From assembly GCA_964398335.1 (NCBI GenBank), contig CAYNOF010000902.1, positions 1 to 28,267 of the forward strand: a stretch of 28,267 bases of DNA. The letters run 5' to 3'. Below the pieces are notes generated by a model. It did not search any database. It saw nothing but the letters and a program-made list of their open reading frames with translations, and was not told where the DNA came from. This document shows, in pieces, positions 12,488 through 28,267 of the stretch; the first letter of the stretch is position 1; every line of letters begins with the position of its first letter. The stretch comes from an uncultured Rhizobiaceae bacterium (GTDB lineage: Bacteria; Pseudomonadota; Alphaproteobacteria; Reyranellales; Reyranellaceae). Made by a program: the position numbers and the translations under genes.

Positions 12488-13597
12488 ATGAGGCAACTCA
12501 GCGCTCGGTTCAGGATCGCAGCGCTGGCGGCACTGGCCGCCGGCATCACTCTACCGGCGGCCGAGGCCGCAGATCTCAGGGCCACCGACTATCGGCTCTC
12601 AGGCCCCTACAGCCACGGCAACCTCACCCTCTACATGATCCACGGCAAGCCGGGCGATACCGGCAAGCCGCCGCTCACCCTGCAGGAAGCGCTGCAGCGC
12701 GGCACGGTGCGCGTGCGCGAGACCGGCACGGTGAGCGAGCTGGAGATCGAGAATCTCGGCGACCAGGACGTCTTCGTGCAGGCTGGCGATATCGTGAAGG
12801 GCGGCCAGCAGGACCGCGTGGTGCAGCTCGACCTGGTGCTGGCGCCACGCTCGGGACGCGTGCCGCTGGCGGCGTTCTGCGTCGAGCACGGCCGCTGGTC
12901 GGCGCGCGGCCGCGAGGACGTCAAGCAATTCGCCAGCGCCACCACCTCGCTGCCATCGAAGGACCTGAAGCTTGCCGCGCGCGGCGTGCCGCTGGCCAAG
13001 CCCAACGTGCAGCCCAATCCCGAGCCGCGCGACCCGCATGCGCGCGTGCAGCGCCAGACCGCGCGGCCGGCGCCGGGCGACAGCCAGGGCCGCGTCTGGG
13101 CCGGCGTCGCCGACATGCAGCGCAAGCTGAGCGACACCGTGCAGGCGCCGGTGGCCGCGCCGGCCTCGGCCAGCTCCCTGCAGCTGTCGCTGGAGAACCA
13201 GAAGCTTCAGGCGACGATCAAGGAGACCGTCGCGGCGCTGATGCCGGCGATCGACAAGGAACCCGACGTCATCGGCTACGTCTTCGCCATCAATGGCAAG
13301 ATCAACAGCGCCGAGGTCTACAGCTCCGGCGTGCTGTTCCGCAAGATGTGGCCCAAGCTCCTGCAGGCCAGCGCCGTCGAGGCGCTGTCGGAGCGCAAGG
13401 ACGCCCAGGGCCAGGCGGCGCCGACGGTCGAGGCGGTGCGCGCCTTCCTGGTCGAGAGCGAGGCCGGCAAGTCCACCGACCGCGGCCTGCCCGCCGACAT
13501 GAAGCTCACCACGGTCGACAGCGACAAGGCCGTCGTCTTCGAAAGCCGCAAGGCCGGCGCCGCGGCTCCGGTGCGCCGCAGCTACATGATGAAGTGA
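12488..13597 (+). CDS. DUF6569 / ARPP-1 family protein with N-terminal signal peptide
   Basis: GGGAG ribosome-binding site; signal peptide; ETGTVSEL..EN, GDIVKGGQQDR, FCVEHGRW and Q..VW..V motifs. Confidence 0.75.
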   Translation: MRQLSARFRIAALAALAAGITLPAAEAADLRATDYRLSGPYSHGNLTLYMIHGKPGDTGKPPLTLQEALQRGTVRVRETGTVSELEIENLGDQDVFVQAGDIVKGGQQDRVVQLDLVLAPRSGRVPLAAFCVEHGRWSARGREDVKQFASATTSLPSKDLKLAARGVPLAKPNVQPNPEPRDPHARVQRQTARPAPGDSQGRVWAGVADMQRKLSDTVQAPVAAPASASSLQLSLENQKLQATIKETVAALMPAIDKEPDVIGYVFAINGKINSAEVYSSGVLFRKMWPKLLQASAVEALSERKDAQGQAAPTVEAVRAFLVESEAGKSTDRGLPADMKLTTVDSDKAVVFESRKAGAAAPVRRSYMMK

Positions 13598-14565: not shown

Positions 14566-14640
14566 GCTGCGGTAGCTCAGTGGTAGAGCACACCCTTGGT
14601 AAGGGTGAGGTCGAGAGTTCAATCCTCTCTCGCAGCACCA
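14566..14640 (+). tRNA. tRNA-Thr (anticodon GGT), CCA encoded
   Basis: GCTGCGG acceptor stem pairs with TCGCAGC; D arm AGCTCAGTGGTAGAGC; anticodon arm CACCC-TTGGTAA-GGGTG; T arm GAGAGTTCAATCCTCTC; ends in ACCA. Confidence 0.98.
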
Positions 14641-14644
14641 GTTC

Positions 14645-15019
14645 TCAGCTCGATGGCCCGCCCGTGATGAAGCAGAAGACCTTGCCGTAGGTCTCGCACA
14701 GATGGGTGCCCCGGTCGGGCGTCGGCATGGTGATGATCTTGCTCCTGGGCACCACCAGCCATTCGCGGCCATCCCAGACGCGATAGGCGCCGTCGTCACC
14801 CATATAGGACGGGGCCGGCCGGCAGTCGCCGGTCCGCCCATCGGCCGAGCCGTTGCAGCAGCTCATGCCGGTATCGGGCTGGCGCAGGTCCTTGTACCAG
14901 TCGTGATGCTGGGCGTGACCGTCGCCATGGCGGCCCGAGGGTTGTTGCGCGGCAAGCGCCGCGGGCCACAGGCACAGCATGGCGGCGACGATCGGAATCG
15001 GCTGGCAACGGACGCTCAT
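14645..15019 (-). CDS. Small exported His/Cys-rich hypothetical protein
   Basis: Signal-like N-terminus, then RHGDGHAQHHDWY, SCCN...DCRP...HLC...FCF; GC3-rich codons. Confidence 0.75.
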   Translation of the reverse strand: MSVRCQPIPIVAAMLCLWPAALAAQQPSGRHGDGHAQHHDWYKDLRQPDTGMSCCNGSADGRTGDCRPAPSYMGDDGAYRVWDGREWLVVPRSKIITMPTPDRGTHLCETYGKVFCFITGGPSS

Positions 15020-15088
15020 GGCATGCGCTTTCCCGCTCGGGATCGGCCGCGGCGATCCGCCAGAGTAGCGCCATTCCGCGCCCCGGTC

Positions 15089-16174
15089 TCAGCTTTCGAG
15101 GGGGTGGTTGGTGAACCGAGCGTTGCCCAGGCCAGTGCCGATGGTCAGCACGCCCCAGCGCTTGACGTCCTTCATCGTCGGCACCGCGCTCAGCCCCTGC
15201 ACGACCGCATCGTTGTGCATCACGATCGCCGGCTCATGGTTGCCGATCTTGGGCAGCTTCAGGCTGCTCGGCAGGTGAAACTCGTCGTCCTCCCAGTTGC
15301 CGGGCAGGTTCTGCCCGCCGCTGGTGATCGCGCCCCTCCCGTCGATCAGTCCGGGACAGGCGATGCCGACAAATGGCGCCAGTTTCACCTTGGCGCGCTC
15401 CGCCCGCTCGATCAGCTCGATGATCATCTTTGTCAGCCGCTTCACCGCTTCCTCGCGCGAGGGCTTGTCGTCGGCGTGCCGCCAGTGGCGCAGCTTCCAC
15501 ACCTTGGCCTTGGCGAGGCTGTCCTTCTTGGTGAGGTTGAGCTGCACGATGCCGGCCCGCATGTTGGTGCCGCCGATGTCGACGGCGAGGATCGCGTCGT
15601 GCCCGGCGAGAACCCACGCCGGCGCGAGTTGCACCGAACCCACCAGGCCCGCCTCGTCGGGGTGGTGCGAGACGGCGTTCAGCTCGATCTCGATGCCGTC
15701 GCCGGCCAGGATCATGCCGGCGCGGCCCATCGCCAGGGTGCCGATGTGGCTGGCGCTCAGGCCACCGCCCACGACGATGCGCTCGGTGCCCTTCCACGAC
15801 TTCAGGCGCAGGAAGCGGCGCACCACGCGCGCCAACTCGCCGGCGAACTCCTCGATTGCGGTATGCACCAGGCCAGCCGCCTTCGGATCGTCGCTGGCCA
15901 GCATCTTGTCCATGTCAGCCTTGCGGATGCGCTCCGTGGGCGTGTCGCCGAACGGATCGTCGCCCTGCTTGCGCACCAGCTCGCGCCAATCGTCGAGAAT
16001 GGCGCGAAAGGCGCGGCCGCTGGCGCGGTCGCCGACGAAGCCTTCCTCGTCGCGCAGTTCCTCGTTGTAGGTGTCGACCGTCACCGCCGGCAGCGTCTTG
16101 GCAGCGTGGCCCAGGATGGGGCCGGGTGACGCACTGTCCTGGGCCAATTCCTTCTTGTCCTTCCTGGGCGACAT
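15089..16174 (-). CDS. ROK/sugar-kinase family protein with circularly permuted motif order
   Basis: GAGGG precedes ATG 16174. Motif order is ASG (~res 51), IVVGGG (133), AGLVG, then DIGGT (199), G..CPG, NDA (321) and TIGTGLG (344) at the extreme C-terminus of 361 aa. Confidence 0.85.
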   Translation of the reverse strand: MSPRKDKKELAQDSASPGPILGHAAKTLPAVTVDTYNEELRDEEGFVGDRASGRAFRAILDDWRELVRKQGDDPFGDTPTERIRKADMDKMLASDDPKAAGLVHTAIEEFAGELARVVRRFLRLKSWKGTERIVVGGGLSASHIGTLAMGRAGMILAGDGIEIELNAVSHHPDEAGLVGSVQLAPAWVLAGHDAILAVDIGGTNMRAGIVQLNLTKKDSLAKAKVWKLRHWRHADDKPSREEAVKRLTKMIIELIERAERAKVKLAPFVGIACPGLIDGRGAITSGGQNLPGNWEDDEFHLPSSLKLPKIGNHEPAIVMHNDAVVQGLSAVPTMKDVKRWGVLTIGTGLGNARFTNHPLES

Positions 16175-16248
16175 GGCCAATCCCTCATGGGCAGTCCAAG
16201 GCAACGGCAAATCGAGGTCCCGGTTGCGCCCCCGCCTCCACGATCCTC

Positions 16249-16275
16249 GGAACCTGCCCCAGCGCGCTCCGTTCC
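16249..16275. promoter_or_regulatory. Candidate bidirectional EcfG/sigmaT/RpoE2 (general stress response) promoter
   Basis: Plus strand: GGAAC (16249-53)-N16-CGTT (16270-73), toward katE. Minus strand: GGAAC (16275-71)-N16-GGTT (16254-51), toward the ROK gene. Confidence 0.7.
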
Positions 16276-16310
16276 CCCGGTGGTCCCGAAGCGTGATCAT
16301 GGAGCGGATA

Positions 16311-18467
16311 ATGGCGAAGACGGGCAAACCAGCGGCAGCGCGGACCTCCGGCCAGGCGACAGAGAAGGATCCCGATGCTGTCGCGACCGAAACGCCCAAG
16401 ACCGAGCAGCTCGGGCCCTTCTCGCAGGCGCCGGGCGAGCGTCTGACCACCAACCAGGGCGTGGCCGTCAGCGACGACCAGAGCTCGCTCAAGGCACACG
16501 CCCGCGGCCCGACGCTGATTGAAGACATCCTGATGCGTGAGAAGATCACGCATTTCGACCACGAGCGCATTCCCGAGCGCGTCGTGCACGCACGCGGCGC
16601 GGCCGCGCATGGCGTGTTCGAGTGCTACGACGATCTCAGCGCTCTCACCATGGCCGCACCGCTGCAGGGCAAGGGGGTACAGACGCCGGTCTTCGTCCGC
16701 TTCTCGACGGTAGCGGGCTCACGCGGCTCGGCCGACACGGCGCGCGACGTGCGCGGCTTCGCGGTGAAATTCTACACGAGCGCGGGCGTGTGGGACCTGG
16801 TGGGCAACAACATGCCGGTGTTCTTCATCCAGGACGCCAACAAGTTCCCCGACCTGATCCACGCGGTGAAGCCGGAGCCCCACCGCGAGATCCCGCAGGC
16901 AGCGTCGGCGCACGACACGTTCTGGGACTTCGTCTCGCTCACGCCGGAGAGCGCGCACATGCTGATGTGGGTGATGAGCGACCGCGCCATCCCGTGCAGC
17001 TTCGCCACCATGGAAGGCTTCGGCGTGCACACCTTCCGCCTGGTCAACGCCAAAGGCGAATGGCGCTTCGTGAAGTTCCACTGGAAGCCACCGAAGGGCG
17101 TGGCTTCGCTGGTATGGGAAGAGGCGCAACTGCTGGCCGGCAAGGATCCCGACTTCAACCGCCGCAACCTCTTCGAGGCGATCGAACGCGGCGACTTTCC
17201 GGAGTGGGAGCTGGGCCTGCAGATCGTCGAGGAGAAGGACGAGCATGCCTTCGACTTCGACCTGCTCGACCCCACCAAGATCATCCCCGAGGAACTCGTG
17301 CCGGTGCGCCGCGTCGGCAGGCTGGTTCTGAACCGCAACCCCGACAATTTCTTCGCCGAGACCGAGCAGGTCGCATTCCACACCGGCCACATCATCCCCG
17401 GCATCGACTTCACCAACGACCCGCTGCTGCAGGGCCGCCTGTTCTCCTACATCGACACGCAATTGCGCCGCGTCGGGCCGAACTTCCACGAGCTGCCGAT
17501 CAACCGCTCGCTCGCGCCGGTCGACAACAATCAGCGCGACGGGATGGGGCGAACGACCATCGACAAGGGCCGCGTCGCCTATTTCCCCAACAGCCTCGCG
17601 CGCGGCTGCCCGATGCACAGGCCCGATGGCGCCGCGGCCTTCCGCTCGCTGATGATCGAGGAGTCCGGCGGCAAGACACGCGCGCGCAGCCCCGGCTTCA
17701 ATGACCATTTCAGCCAGGCGACAATGTTCTGGAACAGCATGAGCGATTGGGAGAAGGACCACATCGCCGCCGCCTTCGCCTTCGAGCTCAACAACGTCGT
17801 CGATGAGGGCGTGCGCAACCGCGTGATGAACGAGATCCTGGTCAACATCAATCCGGAGCTTGCTGCCGTGGTCTCGGCGCAGACCGGTATCGCCGTCGAG
17901 CCGGCCGGCACGCCCGACAATCCCACCCCCTCGGCGCCGACCCCCTCGGGTCCGCTCAAGCGCGATGCGGTGAAGCTTTCCTCGCCGGCGCTCAGCATGG
18001 ACAAGCCGGCTCCGACGGTGAAGGGCCGAAAGGTCGGCATCCTGATCGGGTACGGCGCCGAGGCTGCGGAGCTGACCGCACTCGTCGACACGCTGGGCAC
18101 GTCCGGGATCGTCGCCGAACTGATCGCGCCGACCGCCGGTCTGTTCACCGATGCCAAGGGCAAGACGGTGAAGGTCAACCGCGCGGCGCCCAACGCGCCC
18201 TCGGTGCTTTACGATGCTGCCCTGGTGCCGTCCGGCGTCGGCGCCGCCCTGGCCCAGGCCGGGCTCGCCATGCGCTTTCTCGCAGAGGCCTATCGCCACG
18301 GCAAGCCGATCGCCGTGGCAAATCCGTCCGCCGACCTGTTGAAGGCCTGCAATTTCGACTCCCTCGACGGCGTCGTGGTAGCCGACCCCGGCAAGCTGGC
18401 CTCGGAACTGGTCGGCGCGCTGGCGCAGCATCGCTTTCCCTACCGTCGGAAGCCGAAGAAGGGGTGA
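16311..18467 (+). CDS. katE: Large-subunit monofunctional heme catalase HPII with C-terminal DJ-1/PfpI-like domain
   Basis: FDHERIPERVVHARG (distal His), VRFSTVAG, DLVGNN and LLQGRLFSY (proximal Tyr) motifs, plus a C-terminal flavodoxin-like domain. GGAG precedes ATG 16311. Confidence 0.96.
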   Translation: MAKTGKPAAARTSGQATEKDPDAVATETPKTEQLGPFSQAPGERLTTNQGVAVSDDQSSLKAHARGPTLIEDILMREKITHFDHERIPERVVHARGAAAHGVFECYDDLSALTMAAPLQGKGVQTPVFVRFSTVAGSRGSADTARDVRGFAVKFYTSAGVWDLVGNNMPVFFIQDANKFPDLIHAVKPEPHREIPQAASAHDTFWDFVSLTPESAHMLMWVMSDRAIPCSFATMEGFGVHTFRLVNAKGEWRFVKFHWKPPKGVASLVWEEAQLLAGKDPDFNRRNLFEAIERGDFPEWELGLQIVEEKDEHAFDFDLLDPTKIIPEELVPVRRVGRLVLNRNPDNFFAETEQVAFHTGHIIPGIDFTNDPLLQGRLFSYIDTQLRRVGPNFHELPINRSLAPVDNNQRDGMGRTTIDKGRVAYFPNSLARGCPMHRPDGAAAFRSLMIEESGGKTRARSPGFNDHFSQATMFWNSMSDWEKDHIAAAFAFELNNVVDEGVRNRVMNEILVNINPELAAVVSAQTGIAVEPAGTPDNPTPSAPTPSGPLKRDAVKLSSPALSMDKPAPTVKGRKVGILIGYGAEAAELTALVDTLGTSGIVAELIAPTAGLFTDAKGKTVKVNRAAPNAPSVLYDAALVPSGVGAALAQAGLAMRFLAEAYRHGKPIAVANPSADLLKACNFDSLDGVVVADPGKLASELVGALAQHRFPYRRKPKKG

Positions 18468-18619
18468 CCTGGACGTTATCCCCAGCCAAACCCCGAACGC
18501 TCCATTTTGAACCCGATGCCGATGGACCGTTTCGCGCCATGCGAGCATTGGTGCAGCAGCACTGCGCGTCCCGGACGACCCCCGACCGATGAGCGTCGCA
18601 GCTGATTGCGAGGCACGAC

Positions 18620-18856
18620 ATGCGAGCGTGGTACGGTTGCGATCGTCACTGGTTCATCGTCGCGTTGCCATGGGGTTCGAGCGCCAAGGCCTATGGCTGG
18701 AGCGAGGACTCGATGAGCTGGGAGTACATCGGCCTGGAGCGTACGGACTGGGTCGCGTCGCGTTTCGGCCGTGAGATCGACCTCGACAAGATTCCCGCCG
18801 ATGTTCGCGAATTGTTGCCGAATCGTCGCGTCATCCAGCAACTGGTCGCCGCCTAG
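18620..18856 (+). CDS. Small Trp-rich hypothetical protein (78 aa)
   Basis: GAGG lies 6 nt before the ATG; codons are mostly G/C-ending; it fills an otherwise empty gap. No family recognised. Confidence 0.5.
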   Translation: MRAWYGCDRHWFIVALPWGSSAKAYGWSEDSMSWEYIGLERTDWVASRFGREIDLDKIPADVRELLPNRRVIQQLVAA

Positions 18857-19735: not shown

Positions 19736-21274
19736 TCAGACCCGCGAGCTCTGGCGGTAGAACGGCTCGTGCTTCGCCGGGTCGAAGTAGTGGGTGTAGA
19801 ACTTCTTCACGTGCGGCAGCAGCGCCTTCGACAGCTTGCGCCGCTCCACCTCGTCGTCCGACAACGCCTACGACAGGTCGTCGTGCAGCGCCTTGAGCGC
19901 GCCGTCGCGGTCGACCTTGGTGAACTTGCCGCCCTGGTAGATCACCTCGCCGTCGCACATGGTCATGGTCACGCCGTCGGTCTTGGCGCGCTGGATCACG
20001 GCGTCGAGCAGCGGCATCTCCTCGTCGAGATAGGGATAGGCGATCTTCTTCCAGTCGAGCAGCACGAGGTCGGCCGCCTTGCCTTCGGCGATGGTGCCCA
20101 GGCGCTCGCCGAACGCCGTGGTGCGCGCACCGCCCACGGTGGCCATGCGCAAGACCTGCGCCATGGTCGGCACCTCGTCGCCGATGCCTGGCACGCGGTG
20201 CGCCCGCAGCACCAGGCGCATCTCCTGCAGCATGTCGCGATCGTCGTTGATGCCGGCCTCGTCGAGCCCGATGGCGGTGTTGATGCCCTTGGCCTCGAAA
20301 TGGTTGAGCGCCGCCACGCCGGAACGCAGCCTGAAGTTCGACGAGCAATTGTGACAGACGCAGCTGCCGGTCGCGGCCAGCCGGTCGATATCCTTCTCGT
20401 TGAGCCACACGCCGTGGCCCAGGGTCAGGCGCGGCCCGAGCATGTCGAAGCGGTCGATGTACTCGACGGCGGTGCAGTTGCCGCGGCGCCAGGCGTATTC
20501 CTTCTGCAGCGCCGTTTCGACCAGGTGCATGTGCATCGGCACGTCGTACTTCTTCGACGCCTCCGACAGCGCGGTCAGCGCCTTGTCCGAACACCAGTGC
20601 AGGTTGGCCGGCGCGAGCTGGATCTTCACCCGGCTCTTGTTGCCGTGCTGGCCGTGCAGGTGCTCGAACATGGACATGCAGTCCTCGAGCCCCATCTTGT
20701 AGCGGTCGAACCAGCGCTGCATCGGACCCTGCAGCTCCTTGGGCAGGCCGGCGACGAATTCCTCGTCCTTCTGGTAGACGAGCCGGTTCTGGTCGCGCAC
20801 CGCGAAGCAGTACGAGACGCGCATGCCGACGTCCTCGTAGGCCTTGATCACCTCGTTGGCCTTGGCCTCGACCTCCGGCAGATGGCCGGGCAGCCAGCCG
20901 TGAATGTGCTGCACCGTGGTGATGCCCGAGCCGATCATCTCGAAGGCCGAGTACAGCGTGTCGAGATAGAGGTTGAGGTTGCGGCTCACCATGCGGGTGA
21001 TGAACCACAGCTCCAGCGGCATATCAGGGGAGCCGAGCTGCACCGGCGTGAGGCCGACATGATGGTGGCCGTTGACGAAGCCCGGCACCATGATCTCGTT
21101 ACCGGTGCCGATCACCGGCGTGGTGGGATATTTGCGGCTGAGATCGTCGTAGGTGCCGGTGGCGACGATGACGCCGTCCTCCTGCAGCACGGCGCCGCCG
21201 GCGATCTCCTCCCAGCTTTCGCGGTTCTTCGCGCGCGTGATCATGGCGCGGCTGCGGATCAGGGAAGTGCCCAT
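19736..21274 (-). CDS. Metal-dependent amidohydrolase (Atz/Trz/SAH-deaminase-like) interrupted by an in-frame TAG at 19868-19870 near the C-terminus
   Basis: GAGGAG precedes ATG 21274. GFVNGHHH, HMHLVET, GHGVW and GLDE motifs. The frame continues 43 well-biased codons past the TAG to TGA at 19736. If the TAG is real, the CDS is 19868..21274. Confidence 0.85.
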
Positions 21275-21321
21275 GGCGATCTCCTCCTCTACTCTGTTCT
21301 CTTGGGTGAAGGGCGGGCGGT

Positions 21322-22149
21322 TCAGTCGGCTTCGGCGAGCGCTTCCTGTTCGGCGAAGGCGCGGTCGACCTCGTCGCGCAGCAGGCTGGTGAGATCGCGC
21401 CGCAGCGCCTCGCATTCGGGCGAGAACGGATCGCGCGGCCGCTTCAGGTCGACCGGCACGATCGATTTGATGCGACCCGGCCGCGAAGTGAAGATCACCA
21501 CGCGGTCAGCCAGCGCCACCGCCTCGTCAATGTGGTGCGTGACGAACAGCACCGAGGCGCCGCTGTCGCGCCAGACGTCGAGCAGGAAGTCCTGCATCTT
21601 CGCCCGGGTCTGCACGTCGAGCGCGGCGAACGGCTCGTCCATCAGCAGCACCTTGGGCCGCATGGCGAGCGCACGGGCCACGGCGACGCGCTGGCGCATG
21701 CCGCCGCTGAGCTCGTCGGGCCGCTTGTCCATCGCCTCGCTGAGGCCGACGCGCTGCAGCGCCTGGCGCGCCACTGCCTTGCGCTGCTCGACCGACTCGC
21801 CGCGGATCGACAGGCCGAAGCTGACGTTCTGCCAGACCGTCAGCCAGGGAAACAGCGAGGTCTCCTGGAAGATCAGGCTGCGGTCGGGCGACGGCTGCTC
21901 GACCGGCGTGCCAAAGGATTCGATCTGCCCTTCGGTGGCGTCCTCGAGCCCGGCGATGAGATAGAGCAAGGTGCTCTTGCCGCAGCCCGAGGGGCCGAGC
22001 AGGACGGTGAACTCGCCGGGCGCGACGTCGAGATCGATGCCGGTGAGCGCGACATGGGCGCGATCGGTGCCGGCGGCCCAAATCTTGCCGACGCCGCGGC
22101 AGGCCACGGCGTCGCGCGAGGACAGCGGCTTGTCGGATCTATAGGCCAC
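21322..22149 (-). CDS. ABC transporter ATP-binding protein (SsuB/TauB/NrtD-like)
   Basis: GPSGCGKST, LSGGMRQR, LLMDEPFAALD and FVTH motifs. GTG 22149 overlaps the permease stop. Confidence 0.95.
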   Translation of the reverse strand: MAYRSDKPLSSRDAVACRGVGKIWAAGTDRAHVALTGIDLDVAPGEFTVLLGPSGCGKSTLLYLIAGLEDATEGQIESFGTPVEQPSPDRSLIFQETSLFPWLTVWQNVSFGLSIRGESVEQRKAVARQALQRVGLSEAMDKRPDELSGGMRQRVAVARALAMRPKVLLMDEPFAALDVQTRAKMQDFLLDVWRDSGASVLFVTHHIDEAVALADRVVIFTSRPGRIKSIVPVDLKRPRDPFSPECEALRRDLTSLLRDEVDRAFAEQEALAEAD

Positions 22150-23074
22150 GCAGCACCCCCGCGGGTTCGGGCATCCAGTACAGGATCCGCCGCTGCACAA
22201 AGCGCATCGTCCAGTCCGACAGGAAGCCGCACAGGCCGATCAGCGCGATGGTGAAGAACACCAGCGACGGGTTGAAGGTGTTGCGCGCCAGCATGATGAC
22301 CTGGCCCAGGCCGTAGCCGACGCCGGTCGACTCGGCGACCAGCACCACCATCCAGGCGCCGAACAGGTTGAGCCGCAGCACCATGAACAGGCCGGGCAGG
22401 ATCGCCGGGACGATCACCCTGCCATAGATCTGCCGCTTGGTGGCGCCCATCGTGCGCGCCACGTTGATGAAGTTGCGGTTGACGCCGTCGATCTGGTTGA
22501 TGGTGGCGAGCACCATGTGGAAGAACAGCGCCACCACGACCATGAAGATGGCCGGCGCATCGCCGATGCCGAAGATGAAGATCGCCACCGGCAGCCAGGC
22601 GATCGGCGACACCGGCGACAGCAGGGTGATGGTCGGCAAAGTGAGCTTCTCGACCGCGACGAAGTAGCGGATCGTCACGCCCATGCCGATCGACAGGATC
22701 GCCGCGATCAGCAGGCCGACGAAGACGCGCATCGCCGAGGACGCCACGGTGATCAGCACCGCCATCTCCGGCGACGGGCCGGTGTTCATGCCGACGCCGA
22801 TCTGCCAGCGCTGCGCCGTGTTGAAGAACTTCAGCTGCTCGGGGAAGTTGCCGAGGAAGATGTGCGGCGGCGGCAGCAGCTTGGGATCGGCGATGTCGAA
22901 GGCCCACAGCAGCTCCCAGACGGCGCAGAACAGGCCGACCGAGAGCAGCCACAGGCCGATGCGCGAGGTGACGCGCGACAGCGCGGGCGCGAGCGCCGGG
23001 CGCGTGCCGGCGGCAGGCCCGCCCGACGTCACGCCCGGTACCACGGCATCGCTGGCGTCCGGCACCGCGGCCAT
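22139..23074 (-). CDS. ABC transporter permease (SsuC/TauC-like)
   Basis: LLPPP, SP.AWLP and EAA-like region VARTMGATKRQIYGRVIVPAILP; ATG overlaps the SBP stop (TGATG). Confidence 0.93.
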   Translation of the reverse strand: MAAVPDASDAVVPGVTSGGPAAGTRPALAPALSRVTSRIGLWLLSVGLFCAVWELLWAFDIADPKLLPPPHIFLGNFPEQLKFFNTAQRWQIGVGMNTGPSPEMAVLITVASSAMRVFVGLLIAAILSIGMGVTIRYFVAVEKLTLPTITLLSPVSPIAWLPVAIFIFGIGDAPAIFMVVVALFFHMVLATINQIDGVNRNFINVARTMGATKRQIYGRVIVPAILPGLFMVLRLNLFGAWMVVLVAESTGVGYGLGQVIMLARNTFNPSLVFFTIALIGLCGFLSDWTMRFVQRRILYWMPEPAGVLRGL

Positions 23075-24138
23075 CAGGCCGCCGCCTTGAACTTGAGCTG
23101 GCCGTAGAGCTCCTTGTTCTCGGCAATCACCTGCTCGAGCAGGGTCCAGTCGATCGCGTCGCGGCCGGGCTTCTTCTTGATGTAGCCCATCTCGACCAGC
23201 GAATCGGTGCGGTCGAGGATGAACTGCGTCTGCGAGCGCGCGTCGACCACCGCCGGCTGCTTGCTCATGGCGATCTTGGCGTTGGCCATCGACGTCTTGT
23301 AATAGGGGCCGACCAGCTTGCCGAGCACCTCGTCCGGCTTGGTCTCGGCCATCAGCTGCGCCTTCATCATGCCCTTGATCAGGGCCTTGAGCGCCTTGGG
23401 ATTCTGCTTGATCAGGTCGGCGCGCGAGGCCAGCACGCAATCGGTGTAGCCCTTGCCGTAGATGTCGGTGCCGTCCGACAGCATGTGCGAGCCCTTGACG
23501 TCGTTGAGCAGCGCCGTGCCGTAGGGCTCGATGGTGCAGATCCAGTCGATGGCGCCGGCCTTGAAGGCCTCGACCGCCTCGGGCGTGCTGCCCATGTAGC
23601 GCACCTTGACGTCCTTGAAGCTCACACCGTTCTTCTTCAGCCAGTCGTAGGGCAGTACCTCCAGCGTATCGAGCTGGAAGGTGCCCAGGGTCTTGCCCTT
23701 GAGCTTGGCGGCGCTGTCGAGGCCGGGACGCGAGACGATGATGCAGCCCTCGATGCCGCCGCCGGCCACCACCTTCACTGGCGCGCCGGCGTCGAACAGC
23801 GCCATGAAGCTGGTGTAGGGCATCAGCCCGACATCGACCTGGCCCATGCCGAGGAACGTCACCATCTCGGCCGAGGTCGGCGTGTTGACGAACACCAGCT
23901 CGACGCCGTCATCCTTCGCCGTCTGCAGCGCGTGCGACAGGAACATGTTGAGATTGCAGAAGCCGGTGCCGTGCGTCGACTTGATCGCGGTGTCGGCCGC
24001 GAGCGCGTGGCCGATCATGCCGGGGCCGACGCCAACGGTCAGCGTCGCGGCTGCGCCTGCGCCGCGCAGGAACGATCGGCGGTTGAAATCGAACGACCGC
24101 AGATGGGTCGGGTCCGTGCAGCCAATCCGCTCACACAT
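23074..24138 (-). CDS. ABC transporter substrate-binding protein (SsuA/NMT1/THI5-like), Tat-exported
   Basis: GAGGAG ribosome-binding site; FNRRSFLRG twin-Arg leader; LKGKTLG and A..AG.ID.....EPY motifs. Confidence 0.9.
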   Translation of the reverse strand: MCERIGCTDPTHLRSFDFNRRSFLRGAGAAATLTVGVGPGMIGHALAADTAIKSTHGTGFCNLNMFLSHALQTAKDDGVELVFVNTPTSAEMVTFLGMGQVDVGLMPYTSFMALFDAGAPVKVVAGGGIEGCIIVSRPGLDSAAKLKGKTLGTFQLDTLEVLPYDWLKKNGVSFKDVKVRYMGSTPEAVEAFKAGAIDWICTIEPYGTALLNDVKGSHMLSDGTDIYGKGYTDCVLASRADLIKQNPKALKALIKGMMKAQLMAETKPDEVLGKLVGPYYKTSMANAKIAMSKQPAVVDARSQTQFILDRTDSLVEMGYIKKKPGRDAIDWTLLEQVIAENKELYGQLKFKAAA

Positions 24139-25935: not shown

Positions 25936-27744
25936 TCAGATCGCCTCCTCCCAGCTGCGGCTCAGCCGCATCGCGGAGTTGATCAGGCCGACCATCGAGT
26001 AGGTCTGCGGGAAGTTGCCCCACAGCTCGCCGGTCTCGACGTCGGCGTCCTCCGACAGCAGCCCGAAGGAGTTGCGTCGCGTCAGGATGCGCTCGAACAG
26101 CGCGCGCGCTTCCTCCTTGCGGCCGATCGAGGCCAGCGCATCGACGTACCAGAAGGCGCAGATCAGGAAGCCGCTGGTCATGTGGCCAAAATCGTCGCGC
26201 GTGCCGTAGCGCACCAGCAGATCGCCACGCCTCAGTTCCCTGCCGATCGCCTCGACGGTGGCGGCGAAGCGCGGATCGTCGGCGCGCACGAAGTCGAGCT
26301 CCGACAGCAGCAGCAGGGTGGCGTCGAGATCCTCGCCATCGAAGGTCGACACGAACGTGCCGCGCGCCTTGGACCAGATACGCGGCTCGATCGCCGCACG
26401 CACGCGATCGGCGTTCTCCTGCCAGTACGCCGCGCGATCGTCGCGCCCCAGGATATCGGCGATGCGCGCGAGCCGATCCAGCGCCGCCCAGCACATCACG
26501 GCCGAGAAGGTGTGCACGCTCTGCTTGGTGCGCAGCTCCCAGGGGCCGGCGTCGGGCTGGTCGAAGGTCGCGAGCGCCCGCGCGCCGAGGCGCTCGAGAT
26601 GCGCGAAATGCGCGGCGTGGCCGGAGCGCATCAGGCGCCGGTCGAAGAAGGCATGGGTCGCCGCCAGCACGACGGCGCCGAAGCCGTCGTACTGCATCTG
26701 GCTGACCGCGGCGTTGCCGACGCGCACCGGCCCGTCGCCGCGATAGCCCTTCAGTGCCGTGGCGATGAACTCCTCGGTCGAGCCGTTGCGCGTGATCGAC
26801 AGCAGCGGCGGCAGATGGAATTCCTTCTCGGCCCCGAAGGTGTCGACCACGTTGCCCATGAAGTTGACGTACTCCTCCATGGTGCGCGTCGTGCCGAGGC
26901 GATTGAGTGCGTGCACGACGAAATAGGCGTCGCGCAACCAGCAGAAGCGATAATCCCAGTTGCGCGCGGTGCCCGGTGCCTCGGGGATCGAGGTGGTCAG
27001 CGCGGCGACGATGGCGCCGGTCTCCTCGAAATTGCACAGCTTCAGGGTGATCGCCGCGCGGATCACCGCATCCTGCCAGTCGAAGGGAATCGACAGCGCC
27101 CGCGCCCAGTCGCGCCACCATCCTGTCGTCTTGTCGAGGAACTCCCGCGCCGTGGCATCGACCTCCGACTGCAACGGCTCGTCGGCGCCGAGGAAGAAGG
27201 ACATCGGCCGGTCGACGGCGAACGGCGTCTCGTCGAGGATGTAGGAGATCGGCGCGTCGGTGGTCAGCCGCAGGGTCTGCGCCGTGCCGACATAGCGGAT
27301 ATGGCTGCTGCCGCGCGTGATGTCGGGCGGGCGCGAGCCCAGGCCAAAGACCGGCCGCACCGCGGCGAGCAGGCGCGGCCGGCCGGCGAGAGGCCGCACG
27401 CGGCGCACCATCTGCGGCGGACGGAAGGTGCGCTCGAAGCGCATGAAGCGCGGCGCGAAATCGGTGATCTCCAGCGTGTTGCCGTGGTCGTCGGACACCA
27501 CCGAGACGACGATCGCGGTGTTGTCGACATAGGCCTGCTCGCAGCGCGTCATGCCCACCAGGTCGAGGGCGAAGACGCCGCGCGACGGCGGCGCGTCGCC
27601 GTCGGAGTCGCCGCCATCGATCAGGGAGCAGAAGACCGGATCGCCGTCGAAGCGCGGAAAGCAGCTCCAGACGATGCGCGCCTTGCGATCGATCAACGCC
27701 GCGATCGAGCAATTGCCGATCGCCGCCAGATCCAACGAGCTCAC
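25936..27744 (-). CDS. Glycoside hydrolase family 15 protein (trehalase/glucoamylase-like)
   Basis: GTG 27744 overlaps the otsB stop and follows GGGAGGA. AIGNC...LID, W.C.PRFD, TTSIPE, RNWDYRFCWLRD and GNFPQTYS motifs. Confidence 0.95.
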   Translation of the reverse strand: MSSLDLAAIGNCSIAALIDRKARIVWSCFPRFDGDPVFCSLIDGGDSDGDAPPSRGVFALDLVGMTRCEQAYVDNTAIVVSVVSDDHGNTLEITDFAPRFMRFERTFRPPQMVRRVRPLAGRPRLLAAVRPVFGLGSRPPDITRGSSHIRYVGTAQTLRLTTDAPISYILDETPFAVDRPMSFFLGADEPLQSEVDATAREFLDKTTGWWRDWARALSIPFDWQDAVIRAAITLKLCNFEETGAIVAALTTSIPEAPGTARNWDYRFCWLRDAYFVVHALNRLGTTRTMEEYVNFMGNVVDTFGAEKEFHLPPLLSITRNGSTEEFIATALKGYRGDGPVRVGNAAVSQMQYDGFGAVVLAATHAFFDRRLMRSGHAAHFAHLERLGARALATFDQPDAGPWELRTKQSVHTFSAVMCWAALDRLARIADILGRDDRAAYWQENADRVRAAIEPRIWSKARGTFVSTFDGEDLDATLLLLSELDFVRADDPRFAATVEAIGRELRRGDLLVRYGTRDDFGHMTSGFLICAFWYVDALASIGRKEEARALFERILTRRNSFGLLSEDADVETGELWGNFPQTYSMVGLINSAMRLSRSWEEAI

Positions 27745-28267
27745 GAATCCTCCCTCAGCCCGATCTCGTCCGGTGATGGATGCCCTGAAGCCGCCCAACC
27801 CGCGAGACAGCGACGCAGCACCTCCGGAGTCGCCAGCCGCACGCCGGCGGCCGTCGGCCCCTCGCCGATCTTTACCGACACGCCGCCGTGCCGGTTGACG
27901 GCGGCGAAGGCGGCCTCGTCGGTGAGGTCGTCGCCGAAGAAGACCGGCCGCCGTCCGGCGTAGGGACGCAGCGTGAGGAACTCGTCGACCGCGCCGCCTT
28001 TGCTGACATGCGCGGGCACGATCTCGGCCACCGCGTGGCCATACTGAATGCGATAGGCCGGTCCGGCGGCGCTCAGCGCGCGGTCGACAGTCGACAGCGC
28101 CAGCGCCTCGAGTGCCGGCACCAGCCGCCAGTGGAACGCCACCGAGAGCTGCTTGTCCTCGATCACCAGGCGCGGCTCGTCACGCGCCATGGCCTGCAGC
28201 ACGTCGAGTGCGCGACGCAGGCCGGCGCGATCCGGCGTGTGACCGGGACGCTCGACACCGCCGATGC
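27741..28267 (-). CDS. otsB: Trehalose-6-phosphate phosphatase (HAD), 5' part outside the window
   Basis: The frame is open to the window edge. EDK..SVAFHWR, KG.A and FFGDDLTDE.AF motifs; adjacent to GH15. Confidence 0.88.
   Translation of the reverse strand, partial: IGGVERPGHTPDRAGLRRALDVLQAMARDEPRLVIEDKQLSVAFHWRLVPALEALALSTVDRALSAAGPAYRIQYGHAVAEIVPAHVSKGGAVDEFLTLRPYAGRRPVFFGDDLTDEAAFAAVNRHGGVSVKIGEGPTAAGVRLATPEVLRRCLAGWAASGHPSPDEIGLREDS

Follow-up and report, generated by a model that had tools for sequence, protein, structure and literature searches.

The HPII catalase (KatE) of Escherichia coli is a stationary-phase, general-stress catalase, a large-subunit enzyme with a C-terminal DJ-1/PfpI-like domain that is under the control of the general-stress sigma factor of that organism, RpoS. 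The ROK kinases (PF00480; among them the polyphosphate/ATP-glucomannokinase of PDB entry 1woq and the N-acetylmannosamine kinase of 2yhw) have the ASKHA fold and carry the motifs DxGGT, NDA with the catalytic Asp, GTGxG, GGG, and ExGH with its His. The PhyR-NepR-EcfG regulon (extracytoplasmic function group ECF15; PMC6599016, PMC8092242) has the promoter consensus G(G/C)AAC-N16-17-CGTT, and its targets include catalases, CsbD, PRC-barrel, GSP26 (general stress protein 26), Ku/LigD, and trehalose synthesis genes. Here, we describe a locus to be compared with these three systems, on a 28-kb contig (28,267 nucleotides, 68% G+C; the whole stretch is called the window) of a Reyranellaceae-like alphaproteobacterial metagenome-assembled genome. 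In it, a katE gene and the gene of a circularly permuted ROK-like protein lie head to head, an arrangement found in one genus, and the two are probably separate members of the PhyR-NepR-EcfG regulon. What is new is the apparent, conserved membership of an undescribed family, that of the permuted ROK-like proteins, in the general-stress regulon; the rest of the locus is ordinary. The two genes and the promoters between them are as follows:

15089-16174, minus strand: gene of a circularly permuted ROK-like (ASKHA) protein, 361 aa, with a partial Pfam ROK match
16227-16203, minus strand: predicted EcfG-type promoter facing the ROK-like gene, GCAAC-N16-CGTT
16249-16273, plus strand: predicted EcfG-type promoter facing katE, GGAAC-N16-CGTT
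16311-18467, plus strand: katE, predicted large-subunit (HPII-type) catalase, 718 aa, with three Pfam catalase domains

The best sequence and fold matches of the ROK-like protein are ROK kinases, but its two halves are swapped. Residues 197-357 of the native protein match positions 2-141 of the 294 of the Pfam ROK profile (41 bits), and the C-terminal 70 positions of a NanK profile correspond to residues 111-185; thus, the part that is C-terminal in a normal ROK kinase here precedes the N-terminal one. When the native sequence was cut at residue 190 and the halves were rejoined in the canonical order (191-362 + 18-190), one continuous Pfam ROK match was obtained (positions 2-292 of 294), and the re-ordered sequence aligned to 1woq across the artificial junction, with the native N-terminal ILGH falling on the sugar-binding motif ELGH of 1woq. 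A collinear full-length match to PF00480 was not given by the native protein and appeared only after this artificial re-ordering, so the protein is a circular permutant and not a canonical member of PF00480. The permutation is real by these matches. The chain starts with the large-domain half, which holds the ExGH-like His, VVGGGLS, and PDEAGLxGA, and ends with the small-domain half, which holds DIGGTN, HNDAV, and TIGTGLG. The 197 representatives of the family (50%-identity clusters, E<=1e-30) are collinear with the permuted order. The AlphaFold model (predicted local distance difference test score, pLDDT, 85; predicted template modeling score, pTM, 0.83) has only half-length structural matches to ROK kinases, and its 400-column matches are to tandem-duplicated hexokinases only, a pattern explained by a sequential aligner meeting a circular permutant.

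Among 24 homologues, DIGGTN, HNDAV, TIGTGLG, VVGGGLS, PDEAGLxGA, and the motif His are invariant, and so are the nucleotide and catalytic motifs DxGGT, the Asp of NDA, GTGxG, and GGG, which align to 1woq and 2yhw. Three further invariant blocks (FVGDRASxRAFR, HWRHxDDxP, and GGQNLPGNWE) are specific to the family and set it apart from the ROK kinases. On these motifs, the ROK-like protein most likely phosphorylates a sugar or a similar hydroxyl substrate. Two observations from the same 24 homologues speak against the kinase assignment: only the His of xLGH is invariant, the Glu of the ExGH motif not being conserved, and the family has no Cys cluster corresponding to the ROK zinc motif CxCGxxGCxE. 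In the literature searched, we found no description of a circularly permuted ROK/ASKHA kinase. The distribution of the family is patchy (8/301 sampled alphaproteobacterial genomes), and its clusters, about 200 at 50% identity, come mostly from soil bacteria. One homologue (L089, G188:C81:21941-22972) contains two in-frame TAG codons and is a possible pseudogene or assembly error.

The divergent spacer between katE and the ROK-like gene is 136 bp long. The pattern G[GC]AAC-N15-18-CGTT has only two matches on either strand of the window, both in this spacer and one facing each gene, for a background of 0.025 matches per 330 nt per strand estimated on approximately 1.5 Mb of related loci. From the end of the −10 box to the ATG, the distance is 37 nt for katE and 28 nt for the ROK-like gene, and the two −35 boxes stand back to back, 21 bp apart. 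In the spacer alignment of four members of the genus, both −35/−10 pairs are invariant, and the 16-nt spacers are freely variable. The GCAAC box that faces the ROK-like gene has been reported as a −35 variant of EcfG-dependent genes in Sphingomonas melonis (PMC6599016).

The sequence-only reading had both genes starting from one shared dyad promoter. The dyad exists, as the palindrome GGAAC-N17-GTTCC at 16249-16275, which corresponds to the katE promoter plus positions 16274-16275; its shared use is the less likely reading, the ROK-like gene having a conserved GCAAC-N16-CGTT promoter of its own. On the minus strand, the palindrome reads GGAAC-N16-GGTT at about 70 nt from the ROK ATG, with only GGTT as a −10 box and a longer leader; the GCAAC-N16-CGTT closer to the gene is kept throughout the genus and recurs in all the other ROK contexts. 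We thus rejected the palindrome as the shared main promoter of the ROK-like gene and describe the spacer as two back-to-back promoters. The palindrome may provide a second start site for the ROK-like gene.

The recurrence of the motif was evaluated on a set of about 45 ROK loci (homologues of 56-91% identity) that came from metagenomes and GTDB genomes as well as from relatives. It lies upstream of the ROK homologue in 32/37 loci (27/32 when only non-redundant loci are counted) and also upstream of the homologues in loci L088, L096, and L097. At least four unrelated gene contexts are represented among these loci: the ROK homologue has a divergent katE, a Crp-like gene downstream of it, a hemerythrin gene upstream of it, or a divergent cold-shock gene.

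KatE matches the Pfam families Catalase (592 bits), Catalase-rel, and Catalase_C, all three above their cut-offs, and its score with the NCBIfam HPII model (NF008422), 974 bits, is under the equivalog cut-off of 1102. Judged by this domain content, it is a large-subunit catalase, which shares the C-terminal DJ-1/PfpI-like domain with the E. coli HPII and differs from it in scoring below that cut-off and in the predicted use of EcfG instead of RpoS. The motif precedes all the katE orthologues examined (loci L099-L109); those of Reyranella (genus g4, L102-L109), which are unlinked to ROK, carry G[GC]AAC-N16-CGTT. The homologue of locus L108 (G014:C1:1206792-1208864) has one in-frame TGA and could be a pseudogene or an assembly error.

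The genome holds the regulators themselves. On contig C230, an ORF (open reading frame) with a Pfam NepR match of 26.2 bits, above the cut-off, adjoins an ECF sigma factor ORF, and a PhyR-like ORF, with a sigma-like and a receiver part, is divergent from them; NepR was assigned by Pfam, and the sigma factor and PhyR were identified by reading the sequence. GGAAC-N16-CGTT lies upstream of phyR on the same contig. A genome-wide scan for G[GC]AAC-N16-17-CGTT, with gene classes assigned by Pfam, placed the motif 8-160 nt upstream of CsbD, PRC-barrel, DUF2171, GSP26, LigD, DUF892, DUF883, and YflT genes, and likewise upstream of OtsA and GH15/TREH_N (trehalase-like) genes. These are classes reported as EcfG dependent in Sphingomonas melonis Fr1 (PMC6599016), and trehalose synthesis is under EcfG control in Bradyrhizobium diazoefficiens (PMC8092242). 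The matches come from contigs C46, C615, C116, C40, C988, C1166, C1283, C17, C150, C83, and C230 of this genome (G000); the same scan also returned many small hydrophilic proteins, response regulators, and a PAS kinase.

The sequence-only reading had pointed to EcfG motifs as something to look for, and katE and the ROK-like gene each stand behind one. Since both genes have EcfG-type promoters conserved in their orthologues and the genome encodes PhyR, NepR, and EcfG, a common general-stress control of the two is likely. EcfG dependence is here read from motifs, as distinct from the published regulons, and the motif of the permuted ROK-like gene is conserved across several families. None of the literature searched ties EcfG, PhyR, RpoE2, or SigT to a ROK-family gene or presents a permuted ROK-like kinase as an EcfG target. 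The motifs suggest that stress would free EcfG from NepR and that katE and the ROK-like gene would then both be switched on, each from its own promoter; KatE would remove H2O2, and the ROK-like protein, in which the ATP-related and catalytic motifs of the ROK kinases are retained in permuted order, would phosphorylate a sugar or a similar hydroxyl substrate. The conserved promoters would place the permuted ROK-like family in the EcfG regulon of several alphaproteobacterial families, giving it a physiological context; the regulon, most of whose proteins have no known function, would thereby gain a candidate enzyme of metabolism.

A more specific proposal is that the permuted ROK-like kinase is a dedicated EcfG effector, switched on with OtsA, GH15 trehalase-like enzymes, and KatE, which would phosphorylate glucose or a related sugar and so deliver glucose-6-phosphate for trehalose and/or NADPH; its pairing with katE would be one trace of this role. 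As a whole, this proposal is doubtful. We keep a glucose-6-phosphate supply role as a hypothesis, because the kinase, OtsA, and the GH15 enzyme share the promoter motif, and glucose-6-phosphate is the substrate of OtsA (PMC8092242). The sequence-only reading had suggested that the kinase could recycle glucose from trehalose or glycogen turnover; such a role finds no support beyond genus-level synteny, to which the predicted membership in one regulon with OtsA and GH15 can be added.

The following features surround katE and the ROK-like gene:

14566-14640, plus strand: tRNA-Thr, abutting the Cys/His-rich gene
14645-15019, minus strand: gene of a predicted Cys/His-rich exported protein, 124 aa, an ORF without family match
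15020-15088, minus strand: gap of 69 nt from the ROK stop to the start of the Cys/His-rich gene
18620-18856, plus strand: Trp-rich ORF, 78 aa with 6 Trp
25936-27798, minus strand: GH15 gene, by Pfam
27741-28265, minus strand: otsB, by Pfam, running off the contig

This is the gene layout that the sequence-only reading had described, including the 69-nt gap between the same-strand ROK-like and Cys/His-rich genes and, by the Pfam matches, the GH15 and otsB genes near the right end of the window; the latter two lie 7.5-10 kb away. Four or five genomes at the genus level show the same gene order. Within 8 kb of the ROK-like gene, katE, the Cys/His-rich gene, the Trp-rich ORF, otsB, GH15, glgE, and treS were found only in genus-level relatives (79-91% identity, with a syntenic region); in about 30 ROK loci of other genera and families, no katE, Cys/His-rich, ots, GH15, glgE, or treS gene was present at this distance. 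Furthermore, an all-against-all clustering of the ORFs within 5 kb of 32 ROK loci revealed no partner gene common to them, the neighbors being specific to each context (Crp-like regulator, hemerythrin, cold-shock protein).

Deletions within the genus are informative on which genes travel together. In G003 (contig C49, L069) and G006 (contig C3, L072), the order is SNase gene, Cys/His-rich gene, enoyl-CoA hydratase gene, and a segment corresponding to about 15089-18840 of the window is missing, so that the Trp-rich ORF is lost too. In the metagenomic relative L125, positions 15112-18416 are missing; katE is reduced to 50 nt of its 3′ end and the ROK-like gene to 22 nt of its 3′ end, and the Trp-rich ORF is still present. 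The two deletions are independent and differ in their breakpoints: katE and the ROK-like gene are gone each time, and the Cys/His-rich gene stays together with the same 69-nt upstream sequence. The four genes are thus not gained or lost jointly, the Cys/His-rich gene being kept in both deletions and the Trp-rich ORF in one.

Several observations weigh against the view of katE and the ROK-like gene as two separate members of the regulon. Both genes are present in G000, G001, G002, and G005 and neither in G003, G004, and G006, a pattern identical for the two genes within the genus, and both were lost in each of the two deletions, which took nothing else of note. In 41 relatives, an HPII-type katE occurs in 15/18 genomes with the permuted ROK-like gene and in 2/23 without it (Fisher test, P = 2e-6, which ignores phylogeny); in the class-wide sample, the corresponding values are 3/8 and 15/293 (P = 0.008). 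Together, these points leave room for a functional link. On the side of the promoters, the strict motif also arises by chance: the 6-Mb genome has 78 GGAAC and 104 GCAAC matches (N16-17), and wrong spacings of 12-13 give similar counts. A single match is therefore weak, and it is position, orientation, and conservation that carry the argument. Moreover, a search for transcripts found the stretch only in soil DNA metagenomes and in no RNA runs.

The gene content data would fit a selected two-gene functional pair made of katE and the permuted ROK-like gene, without the Cys/His-rich and Trp-rich genes, in which, for example, stress-induced sugar phosphorylation would supply glucose-6-phosphate for NADPH or for OtsA-dependent trehalose while KatE removes peroxide; the motif shared with the OtsA and GH15 trehalase-like genes would agree with it as well. 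We consider such a pair unlikely. The adjacency is limited to one genus, and katE and the ROK-like gene are unlinked in Reyranella and in five other families. A deletion across two adjacent genes is expected to take both, whatever their function. The co-occurrence among the 41 relatives is dominated by three clades, HPII-type katE is absent from 5/8 sampled genera with the permuted ROK-like gene, and the class-wide association gives P = 0.054 without the window’s own genome. Two separate regulon members, each behind its own EcfG-type promoter, stay our preferred reading.

The sequence-only reading had gone further and joined four genes, katE, the permuted ROK-like gene, that of the Cys/His-rich protein (taken as periplasmic), and the Trp-rich ORF, into a single co-regulated unit, and had held that genes not conserved together would speak against it; beyond the genus, the set is indeed not conserved together. 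Of that unit, the common EcfG control of katE and the ROK-like gene survives as likely on the conserved motifs, and the inclusion of the other two genes does not. The same-strand arrangement of the ROK-like and Cys/His-rich genes with no terminator between them, the gene order kept within the genus, and the trehalose and alpha-glucan genes that flank the region in the genus are consistent with a four-gene module. Nonetheless, with no co-occurrence outside the genus and with the observations on the two smaller genes given below, the module is very improbable and already largely refuted by the neighborhood data; it has no support beyond genus-level synteny, and annotators should not propagate it.

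The Cys/His-rich protein has a Sec-type signal peptide, a GRHGDGHxxHHDWY motif, and the conserved residues Cys54, Cys55, Cys66, Cys108, and Cys116, and it matches no Pfam or NCBIfam family. Its AlphaFold2 model (pLDDT 71) has a small beta domain, and a Foldseek search against the PDB returned no match with E<0.28; the pattern of His and Cys residues does no more than hint at a function in metal binding or redox chemistry. The family comprises 52 homologous clusters and occurs in 4-6 copies per genome in the genus, in unrelated contexts. No EcfG motif was found upstream of the Cys/His-rich homologues, except for one of two tandem copies in L073. Such tandem pairs are seen in L073 (G009:C1, about 3288572-3289357), where one copy has GCAAC-N17-CGTT approximately 140 nt upstream, and in L079 (G005:C15). 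The gene is retained next to the SNase gene in G003, G006, and L125, all without katE and the ROK-like gene.

In the 69-nt gap, we found neither an intrinsic terminator (fold z-score of +0.66) nor a sigma-70-like promoter, and its sequence is homologous to that upstream of the Cys/His-rich gene in genomes without the ROK-like gene. As no terminator was seen, read-through from the ROK promoter into the Cys/His-rich gene is possible; it is not a conserved feature. The Cys/His-rich gene is probably a bystander outside the stress pair, and both it and the Trp-rich ORF would be neighboring genes of the genus backbone, the former perhaps receiving some of this read-through.

The small Trp-rich ORF that the sequence-only reading had noticed after katE proved to be a real gene. 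Compared with two genus-level orthologues, its ratio of nonsynonymous to synonymous polymorphism (pN/pS) lies between 0.1 and 0.17 in its own frame and exceeds 1 in the others; homologues are found at 41-91% identity, there are paralogues as well, and gene calling recovered it in L095 and L125. It is independent of katE: it is absent in G001, it is kept in L125, which is without katE, and its homologues elsewhere do not adjoin katE.

An origin of both motifs by chance, or their use by another ECF sigma factor, with both genes outside general-stress control, is barely credible: genome-wide counts not far above those of the wrong-spacing controls and the absence of the stretch from RNA runs would allow it, but both boxes are conserved while the spacers vary, the motif recurs before ROK and katE orthologues in unrelated contexts, and it also precedes phyR and a textbook set of general-stress response genes in this genome.

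As regards the rest of the window, contig C988, which carries otsA, was considered as its continuation beyond otsB and rejected, the sequence upstream of that otsA not being otsB. A protein with an ARPP-1 domain (Pfam PF20208, 197 bits) and an apparent signal peptide is encoded at 12488-13597, two genes away, and is kept in the genus backbone. At 19868-24138, between the SNase and beta-lactamase-family genes, lie an amidohydrolase gene and an ABC transporter (ATPase, permease, and NMT1-type binding protein); this block is missing from the relatives L042 and L095 and thus represents an insertion or a deletion relative to the genus backbone. On the other side, synteny ends directly after the Cys/His-rich gene, at the tRNA-Thr. 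Beyond it, an enoyl-CoA hydratase gene is found in the window, G001, and G005, and glgE with treS/mak in G002 (L024) and L125; the tRNA-Thr may be a hot spot of rearrangement or integration.

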